Virus record (IMG/VR): IMGVR_UViG_3300003323_001224
Location: 1-64,000 of that record
Source of the DNA: a virus
Direction: 5' to 3' (one strand)
Length of the DNA stretch: 64,000 nt
Positions 1,785 through 60,146 of this stretch are shown piece by piece. Position 1 is the first letter of the stretch, and each line of letters begins with the position of its first letter. Made by a program: the position numbers and the translations under genes. The notes below the pieces were generated by a model that was given only the letters and a program-made list of their open reading frames with translations, did no database searches and was not told the DNA's origin.

Positions 1785-2363
1785 TTACCAGCCATAGACA
1801 TCTTGTTTTCGGTTATTAAAGAGATCATGATTGTAGTTTACTTCTTTTTTAGCATTGGACGAGTAGCCGGGCCGCTGGAGGGCAGCGAAAGGGTAGCAAA
1901 CTTTGTATATTCCCCCTGTTTGCGCATCATCTATATGCGAATCGTCTGGCGTAGAGAGAAATCGATCATAGTAGGAGCTATGAATCATATAACAATGAAA
2001 GCCAGCCGGGCGCTGAACTACATTGGTCTCTCCATCGGACATTAGCATAAACTCCCCGTAAGTCCCTCCCAGATACAGGTCATAAAATCTAGGCTTATTC
2101 CGCAAAAACCATTCCCACCCATCCTCTGCCGGAAACATTACATCACTCTCCATAATGCATACTTCTTCCAGATTGTGAAATTTAGCTAACGCCACCAGAT
2201 TCTTGTGGGACGCATTAATGCAATGCGCTACTGACCAATCACCAGGGCATTGAACAGGAAAATGCACCTGGTATTGCGTAATGCCCTGTCGCTGTAGTTC
2301 ATCGGAGCACGCCTGCCAATAGCTGTCGGGGAGGCGGGGGTCATGAAGGACGTAGATGATCAT
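1785..2363 (-). CDS. glycosyltransferase, GT25-like
   Basis: Motifs SHKNL, IMESDV, YDLYLGG and FHCYMI. Confidence 0.6.
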   Translation of the reverse strand: MIIYVLHDPRLPDSYWQACSDELQRQGITQYQVHFPVQCPGDWSVAHCINASHKNLVALAKFHNLEEVCIMESDVMFPAEDGWEWFLRNKPRFYDLYLGGTYGEFMLMSDGETNVVQRPAGFHCYMIHSSYYDRFLSTPDDSHIDDAQTGGIYKVCYPFAALQRPGYSSNAKKEVNYNHDLFNNRKQDVYGW

Positions 2364-2701
2364 TATGGAGGGAATAAAAGATTTTCAATTAATTTTTTTA
2401 TGAGATCGCCTTCGCAGGGGTTTGGAGCGCAGTAGCAAACTAAAAAGATGTCATGCGTGGAAGCAGCCTTCACCATGCGACGAAATTCCGCAGATTGCGC
2501 GCTGGTTGCGTCTGCGAGTTTATCCAGCAACCAAGGGTTATACTTCTTCAGTGCCTCTTCACGCCCAGAGACGAAGTATCTGGCAGCTGTTTTTTTAGAG
2601 GAATTCCCCCAGCTGTATGGGTTGCCCATCACGCTACCACGACCAATATAAAAGTCATAGGCAGTAGGAATGTGCTTTTTCTTATTGACGACAGTGACCA
2701 A
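2363..2701 (-). CDS. DUF4326-like protein
   Basis: Motifs YIGRGSVMGNPY and LVCYCAPNPCEGD. Confidence 0.75.
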   Translation of the reverse strand: MVTVVNKKKHIPTAYDFYIGRGSVMGNPYSWGNSSKKTAARYFVSGREEALKKYNPWLLDKLADATSAQSAEFRRMVKAASTHDIFLVCYCAPNPCEGDLIKKLIENLLFPP

Positions 2702-2833
2702 TTATTTTACCGATTGAAAAGCCAAATATAAAACCACATAGCCAAAGCAGCCAAAGTGGTAAAACATGTATGACAAGATCAGAAATTATCATTCCAAGCA
2801 CAAAAGCCGCGGTATATGCAAAAGTAGTACGTG

Positions 2834-3949
2834 TCATATAAATCTAAATTTGCCGAGCGTAACTCCTTTCCAACGCTCAAAATCGTATACATTACTGACG
2901 GCTGTAGTCTGCGGAAATCCTTCAATCAGTAAGTCGCAGCGGTATTTAAATTCATTTAACGTAGTGTCCAAATGATACACATAATTGGCTTCTGGCTCTG
3001 TGTCATGAACGATGATGACGGTAGCCTTATCCGCATATTCATAAAGCAATTTATAACGTTCGATAGCTGGTGCGCAGTCAATAAAAACGATGGAGATCGG
3101 CAGATCGTAGCCGCCATATAAATTTTCATAGCTATCCTCTGCAATCCAGCACGAAACGCCTTCAAATATTTCTGCCCATTCTTTGTTAGTCTCATAGGAA
3201 ATAAATGTTCGCTGCTGTAACTCACAATATCTATATAATAGCATCGTACTCCCGTATCCAGCGCCAAATTCCAACACCACTCCAGGTTTGATATGCTCCA
3301 AAGCCATCCATAACATGGGGCGGTGTGAGCTATACTTATCGTCTACACAAAAGAAACTAGCCGGGTAATAAATGTCGTTCAATTTTGACTGCATGCATTT
3401 AAAGATCTGCCAATAACCAGTTTTCCAAGGACGCGCATCTTGTGCCCTAGCTGGTTCGACAAAAAGATGCGCAGGCCATGGATCGAGCAATCTCCCACCC
3501 ATAATACTATCCCATACCCCTTCCTGGTCCCAGTTATCGCAGATGATAATACCACCATCTGTTATTTTTGTCAGCGCTGCGGCGATGCATTCATCACGGT
3601 AGCTGCCGTCGATGACGATGATATCGAATTGCCCATCGTATTCATAAATAGCCTGAACGTAGGCGCTTTTCAATTCAACCTCCCCAGCAACGACTGGCCG
3701 ATGAATCAGTTTACCATCCGCGCCCCCCATATACAATATCCACATGCCGTCTGCCTCTACTGTACATACTTCTTTGGCATGATGACGCCACCATGTTGTA
3801 CTATGCCCGCCGCCATATTCAAATACCCGTTTATCTTTTAAATCCCAGGTTTTCAGAACATCCAAAAAAGTTTTGGTGAACCAGGGGAAAACGAGTCCAT
3901 TGCGTTCATCAATGTATTGCGTATCTGGATGAGGGGGTGGTAAAGGCAT
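2834..3949 (-). CDS. tandem class I SAM-dependent methyltransferase (two domains)
   Basis: Two motif-I sites (VFEYGGGHST, VLEFGAGYGST), each followed by an IDG/IDC motif. Confidence 0.75.
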   Translation of the reverse strand: MPLPPPHPDTQYIDERNGLVFPWFTKTFLDVLKTWDLKDKRVFEYGGGHSTTWWRHHAKEVCTVEADGMWILYMGGADGKLIHRPVVAGEVELKSAYVQAIYEYDGQFDIIVIDGSYRDECIAAALTKITDGGIIICDNWDQEGVWDSIMGGRLLDPWPAHLFVEPARAQDARPWKTGYWQIFKCMQSKLNDIYYPASFFCVDDKYSSHRPMLWMALEHIKPGVVLEFGAGYGSTMLLYRYCELQQRTFISYETNKEWAEIFEGVSCWIAEDSYENLYGGYDLPISIVFIDCAPAIERYKLLYEYADKATVIIVHDTEPEANYVYHLDTTLNEFKYRCDLLIEGFPQTTAVSNVYDFERWKGVTLGKFRFI

Positions 3950-25250: not shown

Positions 25251-27254
25251 ATGTATTATCCCATTGAGAACGGGACCGTGGAGGTCATACAGGACTATCC
25301 CTGTCAACTGCCCCCTGTTGGCTATGGAAAGAATAGGCTGACGGGCGAAGTGGAATACGTAGGTATTGTAAAGACCGATGCAAAGAAGGAAAAACAAAAA
25401 TGGAAAAGGTTTGAACTGCCGAAGGATTATGAGAAGAAAAAGAAACAGGAAGAGCAGCGCCAAAAGGAAGAACCAGATCATTATAATCCTGACCTGGAAA
25501 AGATCCGGACACAACATTGGAAATACCGCCTCTGCGGTTTTTGGTTATATATAAATGGCATACCGACCTACATTCCGCCGTCCTATTATATGTATCTGCA
25601 ATGGTGCCCGCTGGATATTGGTTACCCGGCTTATCGTGATACGGATAGGAGATTTTTTTATGTATGGGAATATTGCGTGGAAGATCCGCGCTGTGCTGGT
25701 CTGATTGATATTGAACGCCGACGGATGGGAAAAACCTATAAGAGCGGGTCTATATTACTAGACAGAACATCGATAGCCAGCCACCACCACGGCGGTATAC
25801 AAAGCAAGACAGGACAGGATGCCAAGGCGGTCTTTTTAAAGACAGTAGTTCCGTTTTTTAAAAAATACCCTGATTTCTTTCGGCCAGTATTTGATCAATC
25901 CAAGGGTATGTCACCGACCACTGAGCTAAGGTTTTTTCAGACCAGTATTAAAGGCAAACGCGCCAGCGAGATCGTCGATGCGCCTGAATTGGAATCATGG
26001 ATTGATTGGGGAACAGCAGAACCTTTTCATTATGACGGATCGAAGTTGAATACTTATGTGTGCGATGAATTTGGCAAAACCCTTGAATCGAGCGTTGTTG
26101 ACCGTTGGGATGTAGTCCGCTTCTGTTTAGATCAAGATGGAGATTGGTGCGGTAAAGCTCTCTTTACTTCTACAATAGAAGAGATGGAGAACGGCGGGGT
26201 AGATGCGAAAAAATTATGGGAAAATAGCAATCCCGCTGATAGAAATGAGAATGACAGAACCAAAACAGGACTATACAGATTTTTCTTACCTGCATACGAA
26301 ACGACATATTTTGATGAATATGGTATGCCAGAAGTTGAGAGAGCAAAAACTTTCTACCTGAATGAACGGGCGGGCTTGGTGAAGGACCCAAGACAGTTGT
26401 CATCTATCATTAGAAAGAATCCTTTCTCGATTGAAGAGGCATTTCGAATCGATGGAGATACGTGTTTATTCGATGCGATGAAATTAAATGATCAACTGGA
26501 TTTTTTGTCCTGGCGAGAGAACATAACAGAACGTGGAAACTTCGAATGGGAGAATGGAGAACGTTACACAAAAGTGGTTTGGAAGAAAAATGCGAACGGT
26601 AGATTTGAGATGCCTGTCGGTTTTCATTTCGACAATCCAAACGAAGTAAAAAAGATTAATGATCAGTTTATACCCCAGAATAATGTTCGGTTTGTATGCG
26701 GATGCGACCCTTTTAAATATGACCGCGTAAAAGATCAGCGCCGTTCCGATTGCGCGGCATTTGTATTCCAAAAATTCTCCCCAGGAGATGATACGTTTAA
26801 TGATTCGTTTGTTTGTAGATACAAACATAGGGCACCAACCACGGGCATGCAATATGATGATGTCATTAAGATGTGTTGGTATTTCGGCTGTCAGTGCCTT
26901 TTTGAATGCAATATCGATAACTGGAAAGAATATTTTAGGAATGCACATTGTTGGGCATTCCTGATGATCTTACCTGGAGAATCAGATCCGGGTCTTTACG
27001 CCGATGGAGGCGGTAAAACCCATCAGCTAATATGCGACTTGACTGAAGATTATATTGATAAGAATATTAAAAAGGTACTGTTTAAAGCGATGATTGAGGA
27101 TTGGTTGCTGTTTAAGTTGGACAAGACAACCGACTTCGATGAAACCATGGGCGCCGGCTATACATTGATTGCAGCTCGAAAGAAGCTCTACAGAAAAAAT
27201 GGAGATATCCAGCGTGACCTGACAGACTTTTTCAGAATTTATAAAGCAAGTTAA
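25251..27254 (+). CDS. terL: terminase large subunit
   Basis: Walker A RRRMGKT, Walker B YVCDEFGK, nuclease motifs GCDP and FDETMG. Confidence 0.9.
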   Translation: MYYPIENGTVEVIQDYPCQLPPVGYGKNRLTGEVEYVGIVKTDAKKEKQKWKRFELPKDYEKKKKQEEQRQKEEPDHYNPDLEKIRTQHWKYRLCGFWLYINGIPTYIPPSYYMYLQWCPLDIGYPAYRDTDRRFFYVWEYCVEDPRCAGLIDIERRRMGKTYKSGSILLDRTSIASHHHGGIQSKTGQDAKAVFLKTVVPFFKKYPDFFRPVFDQSKGMSPTTELRFFQTSIKGKRASEIVDAPELESWIDWGTAEPFHYDGSKLNTYVCDEFGKTLESSVVDRWDVVRFCLDQDGDWCGKALFTSTIEEMENGGVDAKKLWENSNPADRNENDRTKTGLYRFFLPAYETTYFDEYGMPEVERAKTFYLNERAGLVKDPRQLSSIIRKNPFSIEEAFRIDGDTCLFDAMKLNDQLDFLSWRENITERGNFEWENGERYTKVVWKKNANGRFEMPVGFHFDNPNEVKKINDQFIPQNNVRFVCGCDPFKYDRVKDQRRSDCAAFVFQKFSPGDDTFNDSFVCRYKHRAPTTGMQYDDVIKMCWYFGCQCLFECNIDNWKEYFRNAHCWAFLMILPGESDPGLYADGGGKTHQLICDLTEDYIDKNIKKVLFKAMIEDWLLFKLDKTTDFDETMGAGYTLIAARKKLYRKNGDIQRDLTDFFRIYKAS

Positions 27255-27790: not shown

Positions 27791-30136
27791 ATGGAACAAG
27801 AACAATTATTTCAGGCATATCCTTCCCATAACATCGATCCAAGAAAGAAAGATAAAGCATGGGCTATGCAATATCTCAAGGCCGGATGGTATGACTGGAA
27901 TTATACTATACCACGTACCATATTTTACAACTCTGCGGATAAGTACGAGGAACTTCGACTATACGCCAACGGGAAACAACCAATTTCGAAATATAAGAAG
28001 CTTATGGGCGTAGATGAACAGACAAACCAGACATACCTCAATCTGGATTGGTCTGTTCGTCCTTTCATCGCGCAAAAGCGAGATGTTGCTATTAGCAAAA
28101 TGATGCAGCAGGGACATACGATTGTTGCAACACCGATAGATCCTACGGCCAAAGCAGAGCTGGATAAATTCTTTGCGGAAGTTAAGGCCAAGATCGCCAT
28201 GCGGCAGGTATTGGAACAACAGAACCCAGAGTTGGCACAGCATCCCATGCTCCAGCCACAACCTGGTGAGCCTGTCGATTGGGAAGAAATGCAGATGAGG
28301 ATAGATTTTGGTGAGCAATTCAACCGTGCCAAGGATGCGGAAGAAGCCATACAGTTGGGCTTTTATGAGAATAGTCTTGAACAATTCATAAAAAAACTTT
28401 ATGAAGATCTTTTCGATCTCGGTGTGGCCGGTTACAGAGAATGGCTGGGAGATGATAACAAGCCAAAATTCCGAAATGTAAATCCGGAGGCCGTTGTTAC
28501 CAGTATATGCAAGTGGGCCGATTTCAGAGATATGATCCATGCAGGTGAGGCCATTGACGTATCGGTCATCGACTTGGCTGAGTTGGAAGAAGATGGAAAG
28601 CCGGTATTCACGGAAGAGCAGATCCAGAATATCATTAACAACGTCGCAGGGAAATGGAGCAACCCTTCTATGGTTGGCAGGAGCACCAACTATTTCAAGC
28701 CATACGATAAATGGAAGGCAAAAGTCTTGGATATGGAATTCTATTCTTATAATGATTATGATTATAAGATCGGCAAAGATAGCCGTGGCAATACCAGGGT
28801 GAGCAGAGAAGAATACCGGGATAAGCCTTCTGAGAAGACTACGCGCAAAAGGATTAAGGTGGTATATTGTTGCAAATGGGTGATAGGGACCGACTATGCA
28901 TACGATTTCTATCTTAAAGAAGATATGAAACGTTCAGTTGATCCGAAGAAAAAGGCAGAAACGCAGCTCAGCTTCCGTTTTATTGCGACTAACTTTTATG
29001 AAATGCGGGCGCTTGGAATGATGGAAAGGCTTCGACCATTGATTGATGAATATCAGATCGATATTTATAAAGTACAGAACATAGCTAATCGTATTGTACC
29101 CAACGGATGGTGGATAGATTTAGATGCGTTGGAAAATGTGGCGCTCAATAAAGGCGGGGAAAATATGAAGCCAATCGATTTGATACAAATGTTTATGGAG
29201 ACAGGTGTATTGGTGGGGAGATCACAGGGCGTCATGGGCGATAACGTCAACTATAAGCCCATTATCCCCATTCAAAATTCAATAGCCGCCGAGCTGGTAG
29301 CCTACTACCAGAAAATGGAAATCACCATGAACCAGATTCAGGCAATGATAGGCTTGAACGATATTACCGATGCCAGTACTCCAAATCCAAAATTGCTAAA
29401 TGGGGTTGCAACCATGATGGATCAGGGTACTAACAATTCCCTGTATCCAATGATACAAGCCAAAAAGCATCTGATGACCCTGTTAGCTAATGATGTTTTA
29501 ATTCGAATACAACAAGGTCTGCGCAAAGGGGGCGTAGCGGGATATGCTCCGGCATTGAATACGAACACGCTCAAATTTATTCAAGTTTCCGAAACGCTAA
29601 CGCTTCGCGATTACGGTATTATGTTGGAAGAAAAGCCGACAGATGAACAGAAGCAGATGTTGATACAACAAATGCAATTTGATATTCAAAATGGATTCCT
29701 GGATACCAGCGATGTGTTTTACGTTATTAATGTCTATAACATCAAACAGGCACAACAAATATTGGCGTATCGGGCCAAACGGAATAAACAGGCAATTGAG
29801 CAACAGAAGCAAGCCGCGGCAGCACAGACGATACAAGGGCAACAGCAGAGCGCGATGCTATCCGCCCAAGCTGCCCAGCAATTGGAAATGATCAAGCACC
29901 GAAATGCGATGGAATTGCAGCAATTGAAAGGCGTCCAGGCGCTGGATGAAATTCGCTTAAAAATGGGTATGCAGGCGGCCTCAACAACAGAAACGAATCA
30001 AACGAAGGTTGCTACACAAATGATAGCTGCTCAATCACAAGAGAAGATGCAGAAGCGGGACTTGGGCATGCCGGAAGAGGAAGAACCTGGAGAGATTGCC
30101 ATGGAGAGAAATATACCTGAAGAAGAGATGATGTAA
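27791..30136 (+). CDS. portal protein (crAss-like)
   Basis: 781 aa following TerL; LRLYANGKQPISKYK..YLNLDW motif and coiled C-terminus. Confidence 0.8.
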   Translation: MEQEQLFQAYPSHNIDPRKKDKAWAMQYLKAGWYDWNYTIPRTIFYNSADKYEELRLYANGKQPISKYKKLMGVDEQTNQTYLNLDWSVRPFIAQKRDVAISKMMQQGHTIVATPIDPTAKAELDKFFAEVKAKIAMRQVLEQQNPELAQHPMLQPQPGEPVDWEEMQMRIDFGEQFNRAKDAEEAIQLGFYENSLEQFIKKLYEDLFDLGVAGYREWLGDDNKPKFRNVNPEAVVTSICKWADFRDMIHAGEAIDVSVIDLAELEEDGKPVFTEEQIQNIINNVAGKWSNPSMVGRSTNYFKPYDKWKAKVLDMEFYSYNDYDYKIGKDSRGNTRVSREEYRDKPSEKTTRKRIKVVYCCKWVIGTDYAYDFYLKEDMKRSVDPKKKAETQLSFRFIATNFYEMRALGMMERLRPLIDEYQIDIYKVQNIANRIVPNGWWIDLDALENVALNKGGENMKPIDLIQMFMETGVLVGRSQGVMGDNVNYKPIIPIQNSIAAELVAYYQKMEITMNQIQAMIGLNDITDASTPNPKLLNGVATMMDQGTNNSLYPMIQAKKHLMTLLANDVLIRIQQGLRKGGVAGYAPALNTNTLKFIQVSETLTLRDYGIMLEEKPTDEQKQMLIQQMQFDIQNGFLDTSDVFYVINVYNIKQAQQILAYRAKRNKQAIEQQKQAAAAQTIQGQQQSAMLSAQAAQQLEMIKHRNAMELQQLKGVQALDEIRLKMGMQAASTTETNQTKVATQMIAAQSQEKMQKRDLGMPEEEEPGEIAMERNIPEEEMM

Positions 30137-34075: not shown

Positions 34076-35320
34076 ATGGCAGATCTGTCACAATACATAT
34101 CTATTGCTGTAGTGTTGGACAAAAGCCAACCAAGCCCCATTTTTCGTATTGTTGATAATAGCAACTATCCGCTGGGTGTGGCGCAAACGATTGCGGGGAT
34201 CTTGAGTGTAACCCAGCCAGATAATATTACCATTCAGAATACGGATTTCTCACAGCCAGATATATACTGGAATACGAGTGCCCTCGTACCTGCTGATCTT
34301 GAGCTGAGATTAGATAATACGGGCAGCTTCCAAAGAGGAGGCAGCGGCTATCGTATTATTTATACAGTTCGGGCGCCTGGGTATGATGATACTATTTTGA
34401 CGAAAGTCTTTTCGCTTTCTTACACTCCTCCTGCCATTGTCATCACCAATAATTTTGATATATTCACGCCGGATCTATCCGTCCAAGATAGCACCAACTA
34501 CAACCAATTATCCCTAGATTTTATTTCCGTTGTCAGGGCGTGGTTAGCGAACATTATTTCTGTTGAAGGCACCACGCAAATCATCAGCGGGACCGATCAG
34601 GTGTTCGATCTCAATTATCTTGGGAGTTACTACGACTCCCAATATGATATTACCCTATCCATCACTCCTCAATGGCGCTTACAGGGGACATCCAATTTTG
34701 TTACGATCATCGATGAATTGGCCGATGACATTACGCTCTATGCGCAAATACCGCCTTCATTAGCTGACCTACAAGTAGACCTTGCGACACTCAAAAGTGA
34801 ACTTGATGCAGCAGTCTGTGATTGCAATTTATACCGCATATTGTTTGATCGATACAATTTAGCTAATTCCATCTATTCGCAATTGGTGGCAAGAGGACAG
34901 GCAGGGTCGTTGTCTGGATTGGATGTATATATATATCAACTGGAAAAGATTTTCAATAATAATGTTAACCCCACCTATGAAAACACGAATGAGATAATTC
35001 CGGCTTATGACTGGAATACCGGTGGCGGAGGCAGTGTGGCTTGGACCAATATAACCGGAAAGCCCAGTTCTATCACTGTTGAATGGGTCGTCGGGCAAAT
35101 GGGGTATCCTGGTGAAGGGGCGACTACTTACACGAATACTAATATGGTCAATGTACCCGTAAGTAGGATTTATGTTTTTCGAAACGGATTTCCGCAATTC
35201 TCCTCCAATCCGCCAGATGGAGACACCTATTACACTAAGAATCTTGCTGATAACTTCCTGACTTTTTCGGTAGCGTTGGGTCTAAACGAAAAAATTATCA
35301 TACTCATACTTCCTCTATAA
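34076..35320 (+). CDS. virion structural/tail hub protein
   Basis: Beta-rich, with the fibre-type motif VAWTNITGKP; contains a CRISPR protospacer. Confidence 0.5.
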   Translation: MADLSQYISIAVVLDKSQPSPIFRIVDNSNYPLGVAQTIAGILSVTQPDNITIQNTDFSQPDIYWNTSALVPADLELRLDNTGSFQRGGSGYRIIYTVRAPGYDDTILTKVFSLSYTPPAIVITNNFDIFTPDLSVQDSTNYNQLSLDFISVVRAWLANIISVEGTTQIISGTDQVFDLNYLGSYYDSQYDITLSITPQWRLQGTSNFVTIIDELADDITLYAQIPPSLADLQVDLATLKSELDAAVCDCNLYRILFDRYNLANSIYSQLVARGQAGSLSGLDVYIYQLEKIFNNNVNPTYENTNEIIPAYDWNTGGGGSVAWTNITGKPSSITVEWVVGQMGYPGEGATTYTNTNMVNVPVSRIYVFRNGFPQFSSNPPDGDTYYTKNLADNFLTFSVALGLNEKIIILILPL

Positions 35321-39760: not shown

Positions 39761-39860
39761 AAATAGAGTCCTCATCAGGAATGACGAGGACTAGTTTAAA
39801 CCTAAACACCCGCTCTCAATGCTGAAAAGCGACTGTTACTTCGTAAATATAGGGAAATAT

Positions 39861-40325
39861 ATGAAAGATCCAAAAAATCAGGCCATAATAGATCGCCTCC
39901 ATCCTATTTTCCGTCCCATAGCCGTCAATTTTATAGAGGAGATTGAAAAAGATTTCGGCGTCACTATACATATTGATAGTGGATACAGGAGCTTTACTGA
40001 GCAACAGGGTATTTATAACCAAGGTAGAAGCAAGCCGGGAAAGATCATTAGTTGGGCAAAGCCCGGTAGTAGCTGGCACAATTATGGTTTAGCCATTGAC
40101 ATCTGTCCTTGGGCGGCGGATCATAGTAAGCTGGATTGGAACTATGATTTCAGTAAATGGCGCGCATGTGCGGAAAAGTATCGGCTGACGTGGGGTGGTA
40201 ATTTCCCTAAAGGTAAAATAGATGAAGATCATTATGAGTACAAGGCGGGGTACACAATTAAGCAGTTATTACAAAAACACATTGCTGGCGATTTTATTCC
40301 CGGAACTGAATATGTAAAATTATAA
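39861..40325 (+). CDS. endolysin, peptidase M15 (L-Ala-D-Glu type)
   Basis: SGYRS..EQ..Y.QGR, SWHNYGLAID, WGG and DEDHYE motifs. Confidence 0.9.
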   Translation: MKDPKNQAIIDRLHPIFRPIAVNFIEEIEKDFGVTIHIDSGYRSFTEQQGIYNQGRSKPGKIISWAKPGSSWHNYGLAIDICPWAADHSKLDWNYDFSKWRACAEKYRLTWGGNFPKGKIDEDHYEYKAGYTIKQLLQKHIAGDFIPGTEYVKL

Positions 40326-40573
40326 TGGAAGACAAGGAGCTGCTTATACGGCAAACGGTACTTATCGAAGAGATTGTAAAAAAAGTAACGATTATAGAGG
40401 GGCGTTTAAATCAGCTAAACGATGAAGAAGTGAGGGAATTGGCGACACAGCAGGCGGTAATCAGCGAAAAGGTAGCACGTCTGGAAACCATAATCTATGG
40501 TGCGCTGAGTATCATTTTTATCCAAATAGTTGCATTAATATTTTTATGGATACAAGCAGCGAAAAAAATTTGA
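40325..40573 (+). CDS. coiled-coil protein with C-terminal transmembrane helix (XhlA-like)
   Basis: Coiled coil followed by a single hydrophobic helix. Confidence 0.55.
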   Translation: MEDKELLIRQTVLIEEIVKKVTIIEGRLNQLNDEEVRELATQQAVISEKVARLETIIYGALSIIFIQIVALIFLWIQAAKKI

Positions 40574-40974
40574 TGGCTCAGATAGCTGAATTAAAGAAGG
40601 AGTCTATTCGGAACGCTCGTCCAATATTTGATGCGCTGATAGCGCAATGCGTTGAAGCGGCTATAGTGGATATGAAGGATGGGACGATATTATACACCAC
40701 CGAAGCTGCTCATAAGCTTTTTGGTTATGTCAATGGAGAAATAGATGGAGGGAACATTAAAATGCTGATGCCGGAGCGTTTTAGAACAATCCATGATGGG
40801 CATCTGATAAATTTTGCGCACAGTCCAAAACAAAGGGGTATGGGAGCTGCTGCCATGGATCTTTATGGCGTGACAAAGAAAGGAGAAGAATTTCGGATTG
40901 AAATCAGTCTCTATCCAGTCGAGGCTATCGGGCGGCAATGTGTGGTAGTAACCTTTATGAGAACCAGGCAATAA
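40573..40974 (+). CDS. stand-alone PAS domain protein (FixL-like)
   Basis: EAAIVDMKDGTIL..AAHKLFGY..LMPERFRTIH..LYGVTKKGEEFRIEISL. Confidence 0.85.
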   Translation: MAQIAELKKESIRNARPIFDALIAQCVEAAIVDMKDGTILYTTEAAHKLFGYVNGEIDGGNIKMLMPERFRTIHDGHLINFAHSPKQRGMGAAAMDLYGVTKKGEEFRIEISLYPVEAIGRQCVVVTFMRTRQ

Positions 40975-41897: not shown

Positions 41898-41972
41898 GTA
41901 GCGAGATCGGGAATCGAACCCGAGACCTTTGAGTTATGAATCCAATGCTCTTACCATCTGAGCTATCTCGCC
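41898..41972 (-). tRNA. tRNA-Met(CAT), elongator type
   Basis: GGCGAGATAGCTCAG...TT-CAT-AA...GGTTCGATTCCCGATCTCGCTA. Confidence 0.85.
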
Positions 41973-41995: not shown

Positions 41996-43363
41996 TTAAA
42001 ATTTCCTTGAAAAATCATGCTCCATATTTCCTAGCATAAGGCCTAACCCATCCTTTAAATATTCTTCCGTCATGCTGGGTGTAGCATGCCCGCAGTATTG
42101 TTGGATAAGCGCAATAATAACCCCCCCCATGTACATATGGATGCAGCGGGTATGCTTCCAGGAATAATTAGTTAATTTAGGTGAAAATCCTCCAGGCTCC
42201 CGTACTTCATCCCTGAATTTGTCGCTAAAAAAAGCGCGATTCGTAGGGACCGGTCCCGGTGGCCCATCTATACCAAAGATGTAGTAGTGACCCGGACAAT
42301 CCTTTAAACCCATTCTGATAAAAAGTTCTATCAGTTCCGGTTCCATGTGAATGAATCTGCCGCGCCCCTTTTTTGCCTTTTCGTCGGGAATCATTAATTT
42401 ATTTCGACCCCAAAGAATATTTTCCACTTGTAAGTTACGTGTTTCCTTATCAGGCCGGGTGCCCGTGTAGTATATTACCTCACTAAAATCATGCAGGTAT
42501 TTTCCCCAATAAGGGACAGCCAGAATTGCCTTTTTCACAGCCGGTATGATACTATCTTCAAAAGGAGTATGCCTGATCTTAGTTCCCTTCCTCATCAACT
42601 CGACACCTTCAGCAGGGCTTTTGCTTATAATCTGTAGTTCGTCTTTACAATAATTAAAAAATGTAACAAACTTTTTTACCTTATCATTGTATGTCAAAGG
42701 CGCCCATTCCTTTTCCTCTCTCTTTGCCGCGAGAAAATCTTCCAGGTCATCTTGCGTGAAGGTCGCAATATCATCATACCACTGGCTTTCTTCCAATAGC
42801 GTATTTTTAGCTATATGCTTTTTCAACAAATTCAAGGGCACTGCATATGACTTTCGGTTCACTTCATCATAGTGTTGCAAAAAAAGCTCACTGGCCGCAT
42901 TCAAGGTAATGACCTGCTTTTTAGCTTTCTTTTCTGCCTCTTGTTCGGCTAAGATCCTATTATACTCGTCTATCTCATATTGGAATGGGCTGAAGCCATT
43001 CTCTAGCTCTTTAAGCATGGTGGCCAACAGCTGGAGCGCAAATTCAGGGTCCTGCGCGACTCCTTTGAAAACGCGAAAACGTTCCCATTCTCCCGGCGCA
43101 TTGTGTCGCTGTTGCAATACGGGCGGTAGCCCAGGAGGCACCTTAAAATAGTATTCAATATACTTTTTCTTCCCCTCAACGAGCTTGGGCGGTTTCCAGG
43201 TTATGTATTTTCCCGTTGACACTTTTTTGGCAATTTCCTTTGTCAAAAATACGAACTTTTTGATTTTCAGGTCTTTGTTTTTTTTAGGGTTGATCGCGTG
43301 TATCAACTCGGCATTTTCGACTTCCGGAGTATTGCTGATTTTCAGCGCTTTAGATTTTTGCAT
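41996..43363 (-). CDS. int: tyrosine recombinase/integrase
   Basis: Catalytic motifs YYTGTRP (R), YSWKHT and CGH..SMTEEY (Y); start at MQKSK. Confidence 0.9.
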   Translation of the reverse strand: MQKSKALKISNTPEVENAELIHAINPKKNKDLKIKKFVFLTKEIAKKVSTGKYITWKPPKLVEGKKKYIEYYFKVPPGLPPVLQQRHNAPGEWERFRVFKGVAQDPEFALQLLATMLKELENGFSPFQYEIDEYNRILAEQEAEKKAKKQVITLNAASELFLQHYDEVNRKSYAVPLNLLKKHIAKNTLLEESQWYDDIATFTQDDLEDFLAAKREEKEWAPLTYNDKVKKFVTFFNYCKDELQIISKSPAEGVELMRKGTKIRHTPFEDSIIPAVKKAILAVPYWGKYLHDFSEVIYYTGTRPDKETRNLQVENILWGRNKLMIPDEKAKKGRGRFIHMEPELIELFIRMGLKDCPGHYYIFGIDGPPGPVPTNRAFFSDKFRDEVREPGGFSPKLTNYSWKHTRCIHMYMGGVIIALIQQYCGHATPSMTEEYLKDGLGLMLGNMEHDFSRKF

Positions 43364-43471
43364 GGTGATCTTTTTTAGGCGATTTTGGCAATTTTTTGAC
43401 AATTTTTCTGAGCCAAATCTACATCGAATTCGCCATTTCTGCAATTAAATCCGGAGGATTTTACAATTAGG

Positions 43472-45740
43472 GTTGTGAATTCCTTTTAAAATTGAACGCT
43501 CAGTAACTAGAATACAAACTGATGTTCAACCTTTACTGTTGTAATTACATTTACAAAAAGTGCATTCAACATTGATACATATTACGGCAAGCAACATGAA
43601 TGTTGTGACTTCCTTTTCAAACATATTATTTAGGGAGGGCAATAAAATAAGATGGATTATAAAGCATTATAGTCGTACTATCCTTAGTACGCTACTAAGC
43701 TTGCGTTGTGACTTCCTTGTTCAGTGGTTCAATATCTTGCGATCTTCTCTAAAAAACAACAGTCAATGAGTGGCCAAAACTCTGGCAGTTGTGAATTCCT
43801 TTCAAAATGGATTTTCCTACAACCCAAGCTGCGTAGGTAAACCTTCCTGTTGTTGTGATTTCCTTTTAAATAGATGCAGCCTACAATTCCCCTTCAACTA
43901 ACTTTCAAAGCCATATAACCATTTTCTCGTTGTGATTTCCTTTTAAATAGATGCAGCCTACAACTGGTGAGTAGGTTGTTGTTTCCGAGGAGCAGTTGTG
44001 ACTTCCTTTCAAAATTAAGCTTCCTACAGCCAACCTCCTCTATCCTTATATTCCTGAGTTGTTGTGACTTCCTTTCAAAATTGAGCTTTCTACAACAAAT
44101 GCTTAAAATTGGATTCCATAGCCATAGTTGTGAATTCCTTTCAAAATTAAGCTTCCTACTACTGGACAGGGCCTGGGGTAACAGGACATAGGTTGTGATT
44201 TCCTTTCAAAATTAAGCTTCCTACAAAGTATAGCTTTTTGGATATTTTTCACGGTAGTTGTGACTTCCTTTCAAAGGAAAGGTTCTTGCAACTTTCATAG
44301 GTGGGGTTTACATTGTTATCGAGTTGCGACTTCATTTCAAAAATTGAGGTTGATACAAATGGCGCCCCTGGACAAGTTCTTTGTCACCGTTGTGACTTCC
44401 TTTCGAAATCAAGCTTTCTACAACCCTAGCCCACATAGGCACGGGATACCATTGGTTGTGACTTCCTTTCGAAATTAAGCTTTCTACAACTCATTAATCC
44501 TGCCTCCGCTTATCGTTCCTGTTGTGAATTCATTTCAAAATTAAGCTTCCTACAACAATTATGGCAAATATATATAACGACTCCTAAGTTGTGACTTCCT
44601 TTCAAAATTAAGCTTCCTACAACCCCTGGCGATTAACGTGACGTCCCATTAATGTTGTGACTTCCTTTCAAAATTAAGCTTCCTACAACCAAACAATGTC
44701 ATACTTTTATAATTAACTCGTTGTGACTTCCATTCAAAATTAAGCTTCCTACAACTAAGTTCACGAACATCATATGAAGATAGGAGTTGTGACTTCCTTT
44801 CAAAATTAAGCTTCCTACAACCAGCCGACGGGCGGCTATTTAAATAGGTTTGTTGTGACTTCCTTTGAAAATAAAGCTTCCTACAACAGTCAGCCCAATT
44901 ATAAGAGATACACCTATGTTGTGACTTCCTTTAAAAATAAAGCCTCCTACAACTTACCAAAACCAGTGACAACAACGGGACGTGTTGTGACTTCCTTTCA
45001 AAATTAAGCTTCCTACAACAATGTTCGATCATTCCTTTTTTGAAAGTACGTTGTGACTTCCTTATAAGCTTCCTACAACCGGCGCATGGCATGGGTACGC
45101 AAATGAAGTGTTGTGACTTCCTTTCAAAATTAAGCCTCCTACAACACATCAGCAGCGCAGATACCGGCAATTGCCGTTGTGACTTCCTTTCAAAATTAAG
45201 CTCCCTACAACAAAAATGAAAAAGGTTTACAATGTCTCGTAGTTGTGACTTCCTTTCAAAATAAAGCTTCCTACTACGGTCGATGTTTTGATAAGTCATC
45301 ACTCATAGTTGTGACTTCCTTTGAAAATAAAGCTTCCTACAACTGTTGTGAGCAACTACGTATAGGCGTGCTCTGTTGCGACTTCCTTTAAAAATAACCT
45401 TCCTACAACAGCGTGCCCAAGATCAGCTACGACGCCAATGTTGTGACTTCCTTTCAAAATTAAGCTTCCTGCAACCAGCAACCAATCCTCAATCATTGCT
45501 TTGAAGTTGTGACTTCCTTTCAAAAATAAGCTTCCTACAACAGGACCTGATAACAGGCCACACGACATTACGTTGTGAATTCCTTTCAAAATTAAGCTTC
45601 CTACAACCGAGATCCTTTTCACGTCAAACGACCAGCAGGTTGTGAATTCCTTTCAAAATTAAGCTTCCTACAACAGGCCCAGTCCGCTCCCGTCCGTCAG
45701 CCGCGTTGTGAATTCCTTTCAAAATTAAGCTTCCTACAAC
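43472..45740 (-). CRISPR. CRISPR array, ~34 repeats of 36 nt, ~30-nt spacers
   Basis: Plus-strand consensus GTTGTGA(C/A)TTCCTTTCAAAATTAAGCTTCCTACAAC with ~66-nt period. Repeats degenerate toward 43472, so the leader is on the right and transcription is on the minus strand. Confidence 0.97.
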
Positions 45741-45834
45741 CTGTTTCGCTAGAAAGCACACCTCTCCTGCATTACAGCCTATATTGTCACAATAAAAATG
45801 CGAAACATTCTCGAAAAAATGAGAATAATAAATT
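45741..45834 (-). promoter_or_regulatory. CRISPR leader
   Basis: Largely AT-rich non-coding stretch next to the most uniform repeats. Confidence 0.55.
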
Positions 45835-45915
45835 AAAAAAAGGATTCAGGAGTGCTTCACGGCCTCCCGCTCAGGACGTACAACCGCCCCCTAATATTTT
45901 CAAAGAACTTGATGA
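45835..45915 (-). ncRNA. candidate tracrRNA/scaffold
   Basis: Two hairpins, a GUUGUA loop and a UGAAUCCUUUU tail complementary to the repeat 3' end. Confidence 0.5.
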
Positions 45916-45919
45916 GATT

Positions 45920-47014
45920 TTATTGTATCAAAAGTTCAATCCCAAACTTTTTGCATTTGTATTGTATCATGTTTATCAATCCATGATACGACCAGTTTCT
46001 TAACAAGAACTGATTTTTTGGATCTTTCGCTTCCTCCTCTTTCTCCTTCTGATCAACGAGAATCAATTTGCCGCATCGATATGCGACGCACAAATCTACC
46101 AATTTCTTACTATAACTGTGCAATTTGGTCTGCACATAATGTCTTTCTTCTTCAGAGAAACGTTCAGTGGCTTGCAGCTTCCGTTTTCTACCTTTGCCTC
46201 CTTTGTTGAACCGAGCGGCTCTTTGCGCTCTTCTTAGTCCCTCTTGTATACTAATTCTACCGTATAAGAACTCATCTTTGGTCCCGATGGATAATTCCTT
46301 TCTATTTACTTTGGCCACAATAGGTACATCCAGGCTGAGAGAAGCTGTCATAGCAACGTCCACATCCAAAACTACTGGTTTTTTTTCAATTTCAAAGACT
46401 GCTAATAAAAAAATTTTCTTTTTCTTCAACTGTATAGAACTATCGCAAAGAGAATGTATGCCTTTCAAAGCTTCCTCCATCAGCAACCGGTTATTGCTAA
46501 AGTCATAACCGAAATGCGTTCGAAACGGAATGCCCCACACTTCAAATTTGTAATTTTCGCTGTCTTCAGATAAAGACCAATTGCGCATAAGAATAGTTGG
46601 CAGCGGCATTGGAATGTCTCGGCGATAGGTTCGCAAAGCGCGCTTTCCGGAAAAATATTCCTTCCGCTCCTTGCTAATGTTTGCTGTGACGAGGTTGTTT
46701 ATCGCAGAAACACTTGCCATTGGCGCCTCGCCCTTGAACTTTTTTGAATTTACCTGGTAGGTTGTATTGGGACGGCTCGTAGTTAATATCCCCTCTTCCG
46801 CTTTAATTCTATCCTTCAATGTGATTTTGAAATCATCATGAAGATAAAAGAATTCGGAAATATTTTCCTGAAAATATTGATGGGTGGCCGTGTGGTTAGC
46901 AGCCCTAAATATTATTTCATTCCATTTGCGCAATTTTGCATAATTATCTTTAAACTCTTTTTTATCAGAATCTATAAATAATTGAATTTTTCTTGTTATG
47001 ATATTTTTAGCCAT
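45920..47014 (-). CDS. cas12f: nuclease-dead Cas12f/TnpB-family RNA-guided protein
   Basis: ITRKIQL, GGKGRKRK, HSYSKKLVD..CGKL and LLRNWSY..IQYK..GI motifs. RuvC-I GxDLG is replaced by ASLSL, RuvC-II Glu by LILVDQ, and the protein ends before the zinc finger and RuvC-III. Confidence 0.8.
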   Translation of the reverse strand: MAKNIITRKIQLFIDSDKKEFKDNYAKLRKWNEIIFRAANHTATHQYFQENISEFFYLHDDFKITLKDRIKAEEGILTTSRPNTTYQVNSKKFKGEAPMASVSAINNLVTANISKERKEYFSGKRALRTYRRDIPMPLPTILMRNWSLSEDSENYKFEVWGIPFRTHFGYDFSNNRLLMEEALKGIHSLCDSSIQLKKKKIFLLAVFEIEKKPVVLDVDVAMTASLSLDVPIVAKVNRKELSIGTKDEFLYGRISIQEGLRRAQRAARFNKGGKGRKRKLQATERFSEEERHYVQTKLHSYSKKLVDLCVAYRCGKLILVDQKEKEEEAKDPKNQFLLRNWSYHGLINMIQYKCKKFGIELLIQ

Positions 47015-48025: not shown

Positions 48026-48026
48026 G

Positions 48027-48122
48027 GGTGCGGAGGGGAGGATACGAGCCCCCACGAAATTAACCTAGAATAAATTTCCATTCATTAGACTGAATGCCGT
48101 CTACCAGTTCCGGCACCTCCGC
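48027..48122 (-). tRNA. atypical tRNA-Leu-like gene with CTA in the anticodon loop (possible pseudo-tRNA)
   Basis: Acceptor GCGGAGG/CCTCCGC; D-loop GGAACTGGTAGAC; anticodon arm ATTCA-GTCTAA-TGAAT; T-loop CTCGTAT. Confidence 0.55.
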
Positions 48123-48138
48123 AAATCCAATACTTTAA

Positions 48139-57671: not shown

Positions 57672-60146
57672 ATGGGCGAAACCCTCTCCGCCGTCTGGGA
57701 GCAAGTAAAATCGCTCCTCCATGCCGGTATCTCTGTCATCCCCGTTCGGGATCACGAAGACAAAGGCAAACCGCCCAAAACACCGTACGCCCAGTGGAAA
57801 CAATACCAGGAGCGCGTTACCACCGAACAGGAATTATGGGGCCAGATGGAGCGCCACAATACCGCCGCCGTCGCCATGATCTGCGGCAAGGTTTCAGGCC
57901 ACCTGGAAGCGATCGACATTGATGTAAAGAACTGGCCGGGCATTGATGCCCGGTATTTTGAAGCGATCCGGGAGTTATACCCCGATCTATGGGAGACCAT
58001 CCGTATCCACAGCACGCCTTCGGGCGGCTACCACATATTATACCGGATAGATAGGCCCGGTATACCCGGTAACCAGAAACTTGCCACTGCGGCGGGATCA
58101 ACGCAGGCAGGGATCGAAACAAGGGGGGAGGGGGGCTACGTTGTGGCTCCCCCCTCCCTGGGTTACCAGATCTATAAAGATCGACCGCTTCCCGTCTATA
58201 CCTGGGAACAACGTGAAGCCCTGATCAATCTTGCGAGGAGCTTTGATGAAAAGATCAAGGTCGCAGCAGCCCCTCCCTTACCCAAAAGTAAAAATGACTA
58301 TTATGATGAAAATCCATTCGAACATTTTAATGGTTCACCTGCCGCTGAAGAGATCCTTACTGATCAAGGATGGAGCCGGCTTCGAAATAGAAATAGCAGT
58401 TATCGATATTTTACACGACCGGGTAAATCTGCTGGTATCAGTGCCTCCTTCATTGTCGGGTCCCGACTATACTATATCTTCACTTCCAGCACCCACCTGG
58501 AACCTTCGACCGCCTACAGTCCTTCCGCTCTGCTCTGCCGACTTCGATTTAATGGAGATGGAAAAGCCCTCTACCAATACCTCGTCGAACAGGGCTACGG
58601 CAAAATAAAGTCCCGGATAGAACAACGCCTCGTACGTTCCAAGATCCTCAGCGGCGATGACCTACCCGGCAACGTCTCTTCCGCCGCCAAAGAATTATAT
58701 ACCAAAGAAAAAGACCGCCTATGCAGGACATACGCACACGGCACCTACTGGGTGCAGGACGATATAGACGATGTGGTCAAGATCAACCGGGAACGCTTGT
58801 ACACCGTAGCCTCCGGACTCGGCTTTCGGCACTACAACGGCAAGGTCGTACAGATCGATGGCTATATCGTCCGGTCTGTCACGGACCGGCTGTTCTACGA
58901 TACGCTGAAATCTTACTGCGTAGAAGAAGAAGCAGATTTTCTCGAAGCTATCCGCAACGCATTCGAAGCTTTTGTTCAGAAGGCTGGCGAGTTTACTATT
59001 ACCCGGATCGAGGAGCTAGACGAACGTCATATTCTTACAAGTGCGAAACATACCTCTTTCAAGTTTTATAATAACGGCTTTATCAAGATCTGGGCTACGG
59101 AAATTTCTTTTCATTCATACAGCGAAATTTCTCACTGGCTCATCTGGGAACAACAGATCATCCAAAGAGATTACCAATCTTTTGAAGGTGATGTTACCCA
59201 ATCGCTTTTTTATCAATTCCTGGAAAAGGCCCTCGGCATATCCGACTACTTATGGCAAGTCCTGGGTTATATCATCCATGACTACAAAGATGAAACCATG
59301 GGCTACATCTTCGCCCTTGTCGAAAAGTGCGAAGATCCCCGACAAGGCGGTGGCACCGGCAAAAACCTCCTTTGCAACCTGCTCTCCCATATCACCACGG
59401 TGAAGGTAGTGGCCGGCTCACAAGTCCAGTTGAATGAAAAGCTTCTCCAGTCCTGGAATTACGAAAAGCTCCTGGTCATCAGCGATGTCCCTAAGCGCTT
59501 TGACTGGAGCTTTCTGAAAGAACCTTCCATGGGACACGCCACTAAAAAAAATCTCTTTAAAGATGAAATCGTTATCCCGCCTGATAAAATGTGCAAGTTC
59601 CTGGTCCTTACCAATTATTCTTATGATAATGTTGATGGAGGACTTAGACGACGCATACGGCCACTGGAGTTTACCTCCTTTTTTACCCATTCCGGCGGTG
59701 TGGACGGGCACTTCGGTAGACTCTTTCCCTACGATTGGAATGACCTGGAATGGGCCGCCTACGATCACCTTTTGCATCACGCGATACAACGATACCTGCA
59801 ATCTGATGGTAAGATTCCTGCGACCGATCTTTCCCCTACCGGATGGCTCAAACAGTTCGATCAAACCTATCACTTCGCCACACGGGGATTTATCCAGGAA
59901 CAATGGGACTTCTGGTTACGTAGTGGCTTCATCTCCAACGAAAGTTTTAAACAAGCCTATGACCTTTATTGCAATACCAACGGCATTCATCCACGCTATC
60001 GCCTTACCATGCACAAACTCAACCAGGCCATAAGAGAGTGGTGTGATTACAATAAAGTCTTTTTCGATGTCGATGCGATCGAACGGTATAACAGTATTCC
60101 CTTCCGGGGTAAACGTTTTACTTTGCTGGAGGCGCCACCGTTTTAA
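57672..60146 (+). CDS. bifunctional primase-polymerase with P-loop helicase
   Basis: Prim-Pol motifs AIDIDVK, TPSGGYHILY and ETRGEGGYVVAPPS; Walker A GGTGKN. Confidence 0.85.
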   Translation: MGETLSAVWEQVKSLLHAGISVIPVRDHEDKGKPPKTPYAQWKQYQERVTTEQELWGQMERHNTAAVAMICGKVSGHLEAIDIDVKNWPGIDARYFEAIRELYPDLWETIRIHSTPSGGYHILYRIDRPGIPGNQKLATAAGSTQAGIETRGEGGYVVAPPSLGYQIYKDRPLPVYTWEQREALINLARSFDEKIKVAAAPPLPKSKNDYYDENPFEHFNGSPAAEEILTDQGWSRLRNRNSSYRYFTRPGKSAGISASFIVGSRLYYIFTSSTHLEPSTAYSPSALLCRLRFNGDGKALYQYLVEQGYGKIKSRIEQRLVRSKILSGDDLPGNVSSAAKELYTKEKDRLCRTYAHGTYWVQDDIDDVVKINRERLYTVASGLGFRHYNGKVVQIDGYIVRSVTDRLFYDTLKSYCVEEEADFLEAIRNAFEAFVQKAGEFTITRIEELDERHILTSAKHTSFKFYNNGFIKIWATEISFHSYSEISHWLIWEQQIIQRDYQSFEGDVTQSLFYQFLEKALGISDYLWQVLGYIIHDYKDETMGYIFALVEKCEDPRQGGGTGKNLLCNLLSHITTVKVVAGSQVQLNEKLLQSWNYEKLLVISDVPKRFDWSFLKEPSMGHATKKNLFKDEIVIPPDKMCKFLVLTNYSYDNVDGGLRRRIRPLEFTSFFTHSGGVDGHFGRLFPYDWNDLEWAAYDHLLHHAIQRYLQSDGKIPATDLSPTGWLKQFDQTYHFATRGFIQEQWDFWLRSGFISNESFKQAYDLYCNTNGIHPRYRLTMHKLNQAIREWCDYNKVFFDVDAIERYNSIPFRGKRFTLLEAPPF

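Follow-up and report, generated by a model that had tools for sequence, protein, structure and literature searches.

The closest described relatives of the locus analysed here are the dCas12f–sigma-E systems of Bacteroidota, built around a truncated, nuclease-dead Cas12f (dCas12f); the protein of one of them, from Flagellimonas taeanensis (Fta), has been solved as PDB entry 9n9c (PMC13472631; bioRxiv 10.1101/2025.06.10.658880). Altae-Tran et al. 2023 proposed a scenario for their origin in which Cas12f lost RuvC-III, the CRISPR array was minimised, the trans-activating CRISPR RNA (tracrRNA) and half a repeat were fused, and sigma-E was gained (PMC10691335). Hoffmann et al. further recognised, by bioinformatics, a "distinct cluster" of CRISPR-linked dCas12f without rpoE (PMC13472631, Extended Data Fig. 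1a,b). Here we analyse the first 64,000 nucleotides (nt) of IMG/VR virus record IMGVR_UViG_3300003323_001224, hereafter the window, in which a dcas12f gene, a tracrRNA-like scaffold RNA and a long CRISPR array lie side by side. We found no description of phage-borne dCas12f forms in the literature.

We lean, if only slightly, towards reading this locus as a programmable form of superinfection exclusion, in which an RNA-guided complex would bind the DNA of related phages without cleaving it. Silencing by binding has precedents on mobile elements in Cas12m and type IV systems (PMC11656645). By analogy, the system would be a sigma-independent, nuclease-dead branch of type V-F that lacks an adaptation module and should work in the manner of Cas12m.

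A dCas12f gene, its scaffold RNA and its array

The locus comprises the following features, all on the minus strand.

45920-47014 (-): dcas12f gene, encoding a truncated, predicted nuclease-dead Cas12f of 364 amino acids (aa)
45809-45896 (-): tracrRNA-like scaffold RNA, between gene and array
45874-45889 (-): P1 hairpin of the scaffold RNA, with loop GUUGUA at 45879-45884
45847-45869 (-): P2 hairpin of the scaffold RNA
45837-45849 (-): anti-repeat CUGAAUCCUUUUU, with the U-run 45835-45841 as its 3' end
45741-45808 (-): putative leader, separating the scaffold RNA from the first repeat; A+T-rich and directly upstream of the best-kept repeats
43472-45740 (-): CRISPR array of 33 repeats of 36 nt, reading GTTGTAGGAAGCTTAATTTTGAAAGGAAGTCACAAC in the sense of the CRISPR RNA (crRNA), with 31 unique spacers

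A PDB sequence search with the 364-aa open reading frame (ORF) returned entry 9n9c ("Nuclease-deactivated Cas12f", 365 aa), which matches residues 7-363 at E 1.4e-91 and ~50% identity. The weaker matches, from 9e-35 to 4e-4, are to active Cas12f/TnpB (9nzo, 9e-35; 8hr5, 5e-26), and every match at E<=10 is to Cas12f, TnpB or Cas14, with nothing that places the protein in the Cas12m lineage. The initial annotation had argued for a dead Cas12f/TnpB fold from the motifs AMTASLSL and LILVDQ and the C-terminal GIELLIQ; all three are present in the ORF, and the homology search bears the fold out.

The active site was aligned against full-length relatives that have the zinc finger and RuvC-III (L024, L028). 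In this alignment the RuvC-I Asp is replaced by Ser225, and the RuvC-II position falls at Val320/Asp321, a position that is variable among dead homologues. The zinc finger (CxxC) and RuvC-III are gone: the protein stops just past the lid region, as do 32 of the 32 aligned homologues. Judged by the same criteria as the solved 9n9c protein, it is thus predicted to be nuclease dead, and the dead and truncated active site first described for it stands. The family is a large one, with 513 homologues at E<=1e-10, the aligned ones of ~360-395 aa; the closest full-length homologues, P0002 and P0003, share 89% and 67% identity with the window protein. We considered a split nuclease that takes RuvC-III from a neighbouring gene and rejected it, the upstream ORFs having neither Cys pairs nor a family match.

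Directly after the stop codon lies an element of ~55 nt that is conserved in nearly every dCas12f locus. In 20 aligned loci (the window and 19 others) this element consists of the P1 and P2 hairpins, with 99.5% pairing and compensatory change at 7/11 pairs; none of 500 shuffles reaches the observed covariation, which collapses when the partners are slid by 1-3 columns. The window scaffold RNA keeps all its pairs and scores 62.8 bits with a covariance model, as the only copy in the window. Searched against the other dCas12f loci, the same model finds the element in the great majority of them, on the gene's strand and often in tandem. The minimum-energy fold reproduces both hairpins. Since the energy z-score of the scaffold taken alone is weak (-1.26), the case for the structure rests on covariation.

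In Flagellimonas loci the published single guide RNA, whose coding sequence comes immediately downstream of dcas12f, has this element as its 5' part (PMC13472631). In the window and the other array-bearing loci the element is unfused to a guide, and is followed by a short tail, a U-run and then the CRISPR array. A further layout is seen in three sigma-E-linked Pedobacter loci (L088, L091 and L092, 6000-7600), where tandem full guide scaffolds with 9, 13 and 5 model matches follow dcas12f; these are guide-RNA arrays of whole scaffolds, not of CRISPR repeats.

Two separate segments of the scaffold RNA pair with the repeat. The P1 loop hexamer is matched to the spacer-bordering end of the cognate repeat, its last 6 nt: 65 of 66 positions pair in 11 loci, and they do so in five compensatory types (GTTGTA/TACAAC, GCTGTA/TACAGC, GTTGCA/TGCAAC, GCTGCA/TGCAGC and GTTCGG/TCGAAC). 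For the tail that follows P2, the pairing partner is the internal 3' segment of the cognate repeat, with a mean of -10.3 kcal/mol, against -5.5 for non-cognate repeats. Permutation gives a fraction of 2e-5 for the loop, and 0/50,000 permutations reach the observed value for the tail; the loci share ancestry, a caveat to our interpretation, so that both figures overstate independence and should not be read as true probabilities; the five distinct compensatory types carry more weight. A duplex scan of the entire first 100 nt against the repeat yields a weak signal, which becomes clear once the P1 loop and the post-P2 tail are taken separately. In the window, the three leader-proximal repeats carry the variant …GGAATTCACAAC, whose pairing with the tail is better as judged by eye.

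Because these scaffold segments co-vary with the cognate repeat, we attribute the array to dCas12f rather than a host effector. The covariation shows a predicted dual guide, made of the tracrRNA-like scaffold and a crRNA in which the spacer lies 3' of the repeat. An effector beside an array, and a tracrRNA carrying an anti-repeat to that array's repeat, are features of type V-F, and both are present here.

The array was first described as ~34 repeats with many diverse spacers, co-oriented with the gene. We count 33 copies in that same orientation, 23 of them within 3 mismatches of the consensus, and the 31 unique spacers are mostly 30 nt long. Repeats are degenerate near 43472 and nearly perfect near 45740, which places the leader at the gene-proximal end; the position of 45741-45808 suggests a role as promoter and leader. 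Local damage is visible within the array, where the repeat at 45050-45085 is short of 6 central nt and 150 nt at 43638-43787 hold repeat fragments only. The repeats that adjoin dCas12f homologues form one 36-nt family, G(T/G)TGTA…ACA(A/G)C, with a constant orientation to the gene, and the window repeat belongs to it. An exact scan of IMG/VR for the window repeat itself found no match.

The repeat has a second likeness. Type II-C arrays of Chitinophagaceae (L136-L139, in genomes G354, G403, G165 and G180) have 47-nt repeats and 29-30-nt spacers, and the first 21 nt of these repeats are identical at 19 of 21 positions to the reverse complement of the window repeat's 3' end. They adjoin ORFs of the size of Cas9 (~1,450-1,520 aa) and Cas1 (~300 aa), judged by length and position alone. 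The shared repeat end hints that dCas12f-linked and II-C arrays share adaptation machinery, and spacer uptake by host type II-C adaptation proteins would fit the likeness, which does not prove it.

The same 19/21 likeness also supports a different owner for the array. Arrays of 36-nt repeats with 30-nt spacers resemble the type VI-B arrays of Bacteroidota, and host II-C spacers, like those of the window, are ~30 nt long; the array might therefore serve a host effector (type II-C Cas9 or type VI-B Cas13b), or be a captured host array, its adjacency to dCas12f being incidental. We regard this as very improbable, since covariation with the repeat across loci is seen for two distinct parts of the scaffold and the repeat belongs, in the same orientation to the gene, to the dCas12f-linked family. 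The host II-C repeats, at 47 nt, diverge past position 21, and shared adaptation machinery explains the likeness of the repeat ends better. A Cas13b-type array in particular was rejected, as the scaffold–repeat covariation contradicts it.

Nor do we give much credence to the locus being a decaying, functionless relic, a view that can point to the degenerate far end of the array, to deletions in some inner repeats and to the absence of any known exact target. The reading frame is intact and has full-length homologues at the identities given above, the leader-proximal repeats are nearly perfect, and no scaffold pair has been lost. In fact, the layout of gene, scaffold and array recurs in several complete or near-complete phage genomes.

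Spacer sources and a proposed mode of action

Three of the 31 spacers match the phage's own genome (E 2e-8, 8e-8 and 5e-6), at the following sites.

27081-27110 (+): self-like protospacer in the terminase large-subunit gene; spacer 45476-45505, 28/30 nt
34953-34982 (+): self-like protospacer in a 414-aa ORF (34076-35320); spacer 44293-44322, 27/30 nt
G000:73264-73293 (-): self-like protospacer outside the window, at a gene end; spacer 44822-44851, 28/30 nt, 5' flank ...ctG

At the terminase site (5' flank ...ctG) both differences are synonymous and the peptide FKAMIEDWLL is unchanged; the site in the 414-aa ORF (5' flank ...ttT) has one amino-acid difference. All differences but one are therefore silent in the two coding matches. 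Such silent differences are the divergence expected between related phages, and hence the three spacers, at 27-28/30 nt, were taken from close relatives of the carrier. As close relatives, these sources are taken to be competitors of the phage, in line with the claim of the initial annotation that the array is used against competitors.

The strands of these sites also speak against a host effector. Both coding matches lie on the coding strand, and crRNAs read in gene direction therefore cannot pair with those mRNAs; the third site, which overlaps a gene end, is the sole antisense case.

Further searches with the array added no source. A translated search with reversed-spacer controls gave no self matches beyond the three, the whole array had no match among GenBank phages, and its one match among plasmids (PLSDB) was at chance level (E 0.6). 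An exact IMG/VR scan that allowed any base at the wobble positions of the terminase protospacer found nothing, and the closest terminase relatives (L118 and L119, at 76-80% amino-acid identity) do not contain the protospacer. Against 401 Chitinophagaceae genomes, the array matched repeat-like parts of type II-C arrays and no spacer was matched. For two other viral loci, L012 and L022, comparison of the array with its own record likewise yielded no interpretable match.

The 5' flanks of the three sites are G, G and T, a sample too small (n=3) to define a motif. In the Fta system the target-adjacent motif is a 5'-G and the motif-adjacent region of the guide is critical (PMC13472631). At two of the three sites the mismatches fall at guide positions 3 and 8 or 9, within what would be this critical region, so that by analogy the phage's own copies are probably spared.

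That each of the three identifiable matches falls within the genome of the phage itself could also be taken to mean that the array regulates phage or host genes, for instance late genes during lysogeny, through partly matched guides. Native Fta targets match over 13-14 nt only, and bacterial CRISPR-linked dCas12f proteins have been proposed as repressors of efflux operons (PMC13472631); two bacterial relatives discussed below (L040, L042) lie near an AcrB-type gene position. The site G000:73264-73293, with a 5' G and ten perfectly matched adjacent bases, would suit such a role best. We nevertheless hold such regulation to be distinctly unlikely. Two of the three sites carry their mismatches inside the expected seed, their differences are silent third-codon changes that fit divergence among relatives and not tuned regulators, and 31 diverse spacers without any other self match fit acquired immunity better than a fixed regulon. 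There is also no spacer-length match in the 401 Chitinophagaceae genomes.

Under the superinfection-exclusion reading, the phage would make dCas12f (a dimer by homology), one scaffold RNA, and crRNAs from the 33-repeat array. Each crRNA would keep the 3' part of its repeat and pair with the scaffold RNA at the P1 loop and the anti-repeat, and the spacer would then serve as the guide. The complex would open double-stranded DNA that matches the guide next to a short 5' motif and, since its RuvC is dead and cut short, would stay bound. With related phages as the targets, binding would block transcription or replication, and the prophage would thereby protect the lysogen and itself from superinfecting relatives, with host adaptation proteins supplying new spacers. 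Binding without cutting, repression, a target-adjacent motif, self-sparing by seed mismatches and adaptation in trans are the steps that we infer.

Several observations weigh against this proposal, in addition to the shared ancestry noted for the permutation figures. The pairing in the window is the weakest of the set: 5/6 positions pair in the loop helix, and the anti-repeat reaches -7.2 kcal/mol. An identifiable match exists for 3/31 spacers only, and the collections searched hold no exact target. Some self-binding may occur at G000:73264-73293, given its 5' G and its adjacent matched bases. Finally, the lid Phe of the Fta protein that contacts sigma-4 (F337) is kept here as F336, so that the host may supply a partner.

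Relatives, partner genes and the carrier phage

At least 13 other IMG/VR contigs carry dCas12f homologues at 35-51% identity, most of them with an array right after the gene, and several of the viral records concerned, 72-124 kb long, are complete or near-complete phage genomes or else proviruses. Scans of IMG/VR and metagenomes with a single protein gave no matches, and a 3-sequence profile found two distant metagenome loci only.

A quick maximum-likelihood tree was built from a 59-row subsample, with active full-length relatives as the root. In it the sigma-E-linked proteins make up a single derived clade, with a support of 99 in the Shimodaira–Hasegawa-like approximate likelihood ratio test (SH-aLRT). 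The window clade, which includes P0002 and P0003, branches outside this clade, as do the remaining viral lineages that bear arrays; the nearest neighbour of the sigma-E clade is an AcrB efflux-adjacent group (L040, L042). This order agrees with the scenario of Altae-Tran et al. 2023 and also with the CRISPR-linked cluster of Hoffmann et al. In both members of the efflux-adjacent group, which come from Chitinophagaceae, an ORF of ~1,050-1,085 aa (L040:1810-4971, L042:1706-4963) lies directly before dcas12f with no adjacent sigma gene. The L040 ORF is an AcrB-type resistance-nodulation-division (RND) efflux pump (Pfam E 3.5e-230) and matches the efflux-linked cluster of Hoffmann et al.

Taken together, these results raise a broader possibility, which we put forward tentatively: that temperate Bacteroidota phages carry a heritable, natural form of CRISPR interference (CRISPRi), consisting of dCas12f, a tracrRNA and a long array, updated by host II-C systems, as a cleavage-free superinfection immunity that would be a surviving ancestral stage of the sigma-E systems.

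Searches for partner genes covered the whole 76,638-bp record, of which the window is the first 64 kb. Sigma70_r2 (Pfam) has no match there, and neither does a hidden Markov model (HMM) of 71 dCas12f-linked sigma-E proteins, whose best hit has E 0.39. Cas1 and Cas2 likewise gave no match; cas4 was not searched for. The locus had been annotated from the start as having no sigma partner and no cas1/cas2, and both statements hold over the full record. In place of an adjacent rpoE, the ORFs upstream of dcas12f are of 95, 80 and 78 aa and have no family match. We note a small ORF outside the window (G000:65988-66065; 123 aa from its first start, in a 153-aa open frame) with a weak helix-turn-helix match to Sigma70_r4_2 at 16 bits, below the cut-off. 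It is not matched by the sigma-E HMM and is probably an ordinary phage regulator.

In bacterial loci an ORF of ~265 aa lies directly upstream of the dcas12f homologue in 71 of the 79 scored; two of these ORFs were checked in Pfam and belong to the sigma-70 family, with a helix-turn-helix domain added at the C terminus. The sigma-E HMM has matches in L014 and L037, and none in 11 other viral loci and the metagenome contig L036, within ~8 kb (less at contig ends). Besides dCas12f, no protein was found to be shared between the window and the other viral loci.

These data bear on a recruiter function, in which bound dCas12f would bring in a factor encoded elsewhere, be it host sigma-E for RNA-guided transcription or a nuclease or helicase of host or phage. 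The closest solved relative recruits sigma-E and RNA polymerase, and the C-terminal domain of sigma-E completes its truncated RuvC (bioRxiv 10.1101/2025.06.10.658880). The lid motif with the sigma-4-contacting Phe is conserved in the window protein, and likely host families often have rpoE–dcas12f, as the sigma-E-sized upstream ORFs of bacterial loci indicate. We consider recruitment unlikely all the same: the sigma-E-linked clade does not include the window lineage, sigma-E is missing from most phage-borne lineages found, and no partner gene is conserved across viral loci. Initiation of transcription at ~30 sites in rival phages would bring no obvious gain. Retention of the lid motif says little, because active Cas12f relatives keep it too. 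Exclusion of related phages by binding alone stays our preferred reading.

Individual loci show neighbours of their own. In the viral loci L011 (7470-7985) and L012 (7482-7997), a conserved 171-aa ORF with no Pfam match occupies the position that rpoE has in bacteria, ending ~16 nt and 4 nt before dcas12f, respectively; it could be a new partner. In L012 the gene is followed by an array whose repeat, of 37 nt, is a different one, and the L011 contig ends inside dcas12f. In the L013 provirus (312-2345 and 2342-3466), the last 4 nt of the ORF for a P-loop (AAA_29, SMC-like) protein of 677 aa overlap the dcas12f homologue, which suggests an operon with the ATPase, and an array lies downstream. 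A conserved ORF of ~75 aa is found ~400-700 nt upstream of dcas12f in 6-7 related viral loci (L017-L023) and is not in the window; in several of these loci arrays flank the gene on both sides.

The record is a phage genome with a CheckV completeness of 100%. Besides virion protein genes, it carries the following landmarks.

25251-27254: terminase large subunit
27791-30136: portal
39819-40325: endolysin
41898-41972: tRNA-Met, beside the integrase gene
41996-43444 (-): tyrosine integrase (phrog_1 integrase match, E 3.9e-25), adjoining the array
57672-60146: primase/polymerase

The dcas12f–array locus lies between the integrase and the early and replication genes, with phage genes on either side, and thus sits as cargo next to the integration module of this temperate Bacteroidota phage. 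The habitat is soil or root, and the host is probably a root-associated member of the Chitinophagaceae. Three DNA runs from a single root-metagenome study were compared with the window: in two, a few short fragments at low depth are identical to it, and in the third there is a variant of the dcas12f gene end at 88% identity. No RNA run was found to contain the locus.

Ten tRNA genes are predicted in the phage (41226-41391, 41898-41972, 47874-48123, 49268-51105 and 60204-60275). One of the calls, of 98 nt at 48026-48123(-), is odd, with an unreadable anticodon and no Rfam confirmation. A 142-aa PAS-domain protein (PF13426, E 2e-6) is encoded at 40546-40974(+), after the endolysin gene and a small membrane ORF; the domain is of a sensor type that is unusual for a phage lysis region.

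Comparison with known systems

The window locus and the dCas12f–sigma-E systems of Bacteroidota (Hoffmann et al., Nature 2026, PMC13472631) have in common a truncated dead protein, ~50% identical between them, with its lid motif, and a two-hairpin scaffold module after the gene with the same guide-bordering end. They differ in that the window phage has no rpoE, and in that helix-turn-helix and non-coding RNA partners were not found. Sigma-E systems use a fused single guide with a guide part of 14-16 nt, whereas the window has a separate tracrRNA-like RNA and a 33-repeat array: its 5' module ends in the anti-repeat and U-run, and the array follows. Sigma-E systems target susCD promoters, whereas the window spacers point to phages. 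The locus is not a member of the sigma-E systems as defined, because three of their defining features were looked for and are absent here, namely an adjacent rpoE, a fused guide and placement in the sigma-E-linked clade of the subsampled rooted tree.

The CRISPR-linked dCas12f cluster without rpoE is closer in layout, with a dead Cas12f beside an array, a structured RNA between them and no sigma gene. The published examples are bacterial and have been proposed as repressors of efflux operons, whereas the window locus sits in a complete temperate phage and has a long array with spacers that apparently derive from phage relatives. It also fits the stage predicted in PMC10691335, a Cas12f without RuvC-III that still has an array and a tracrRNA. 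If this is true, the locus would be a natural example of an intermediate between Cas12f nucleases and sigma-E-coupled RNA-guided transcription, with a dead, truncated protein yet a separate tracrRNA and a full array.

Similarly to type V-F systems (Cas12f1/Cas14), the locus combines a miniature effector with a tracrRNA and crRNA, a repeat of 36-37 nt and a guide 3' of the repeat. It departs from them in that RuvC is dead and truncated, with the catalytic triad absent at the sequence level, in that the zinc finger is missing, and in that an adaptation module with cas1 and cas2 was not found in the record. If our reading is correct, a DNA binder of 364 aa that comes with a natural dual guide and an array of many guides would be a very small candidate for multiplex CRISPRi, and the locus, at ~3.6 kb and self-contained, is directly clonable.

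The likeness to Cas12m (type V-M), Cas12c and type IV lies in the expected mode only, that of RNA-guided blocking by a mobile element against its rivals (PMC11656645). Cas12m belongs to another lineage and keeps a full-length RuvC fold, whereas the RuvC of the window protein is cut short. Silencing by binding has so far been known mainly for plasmids (Cas12m, type IV); if the proposal holds, a prophage would be using an adaptive, guide-programmed DNA binder, and not a nuclease, against related phages. The locus also resembles virus-borne arrays aimed at related viruses, in which an array in a viral genome has spacers that match relatives of the carrier. Those arrays usually use host Cas effectors, whereas the array described here travels with its cognate dead effector and scaffold RNA.

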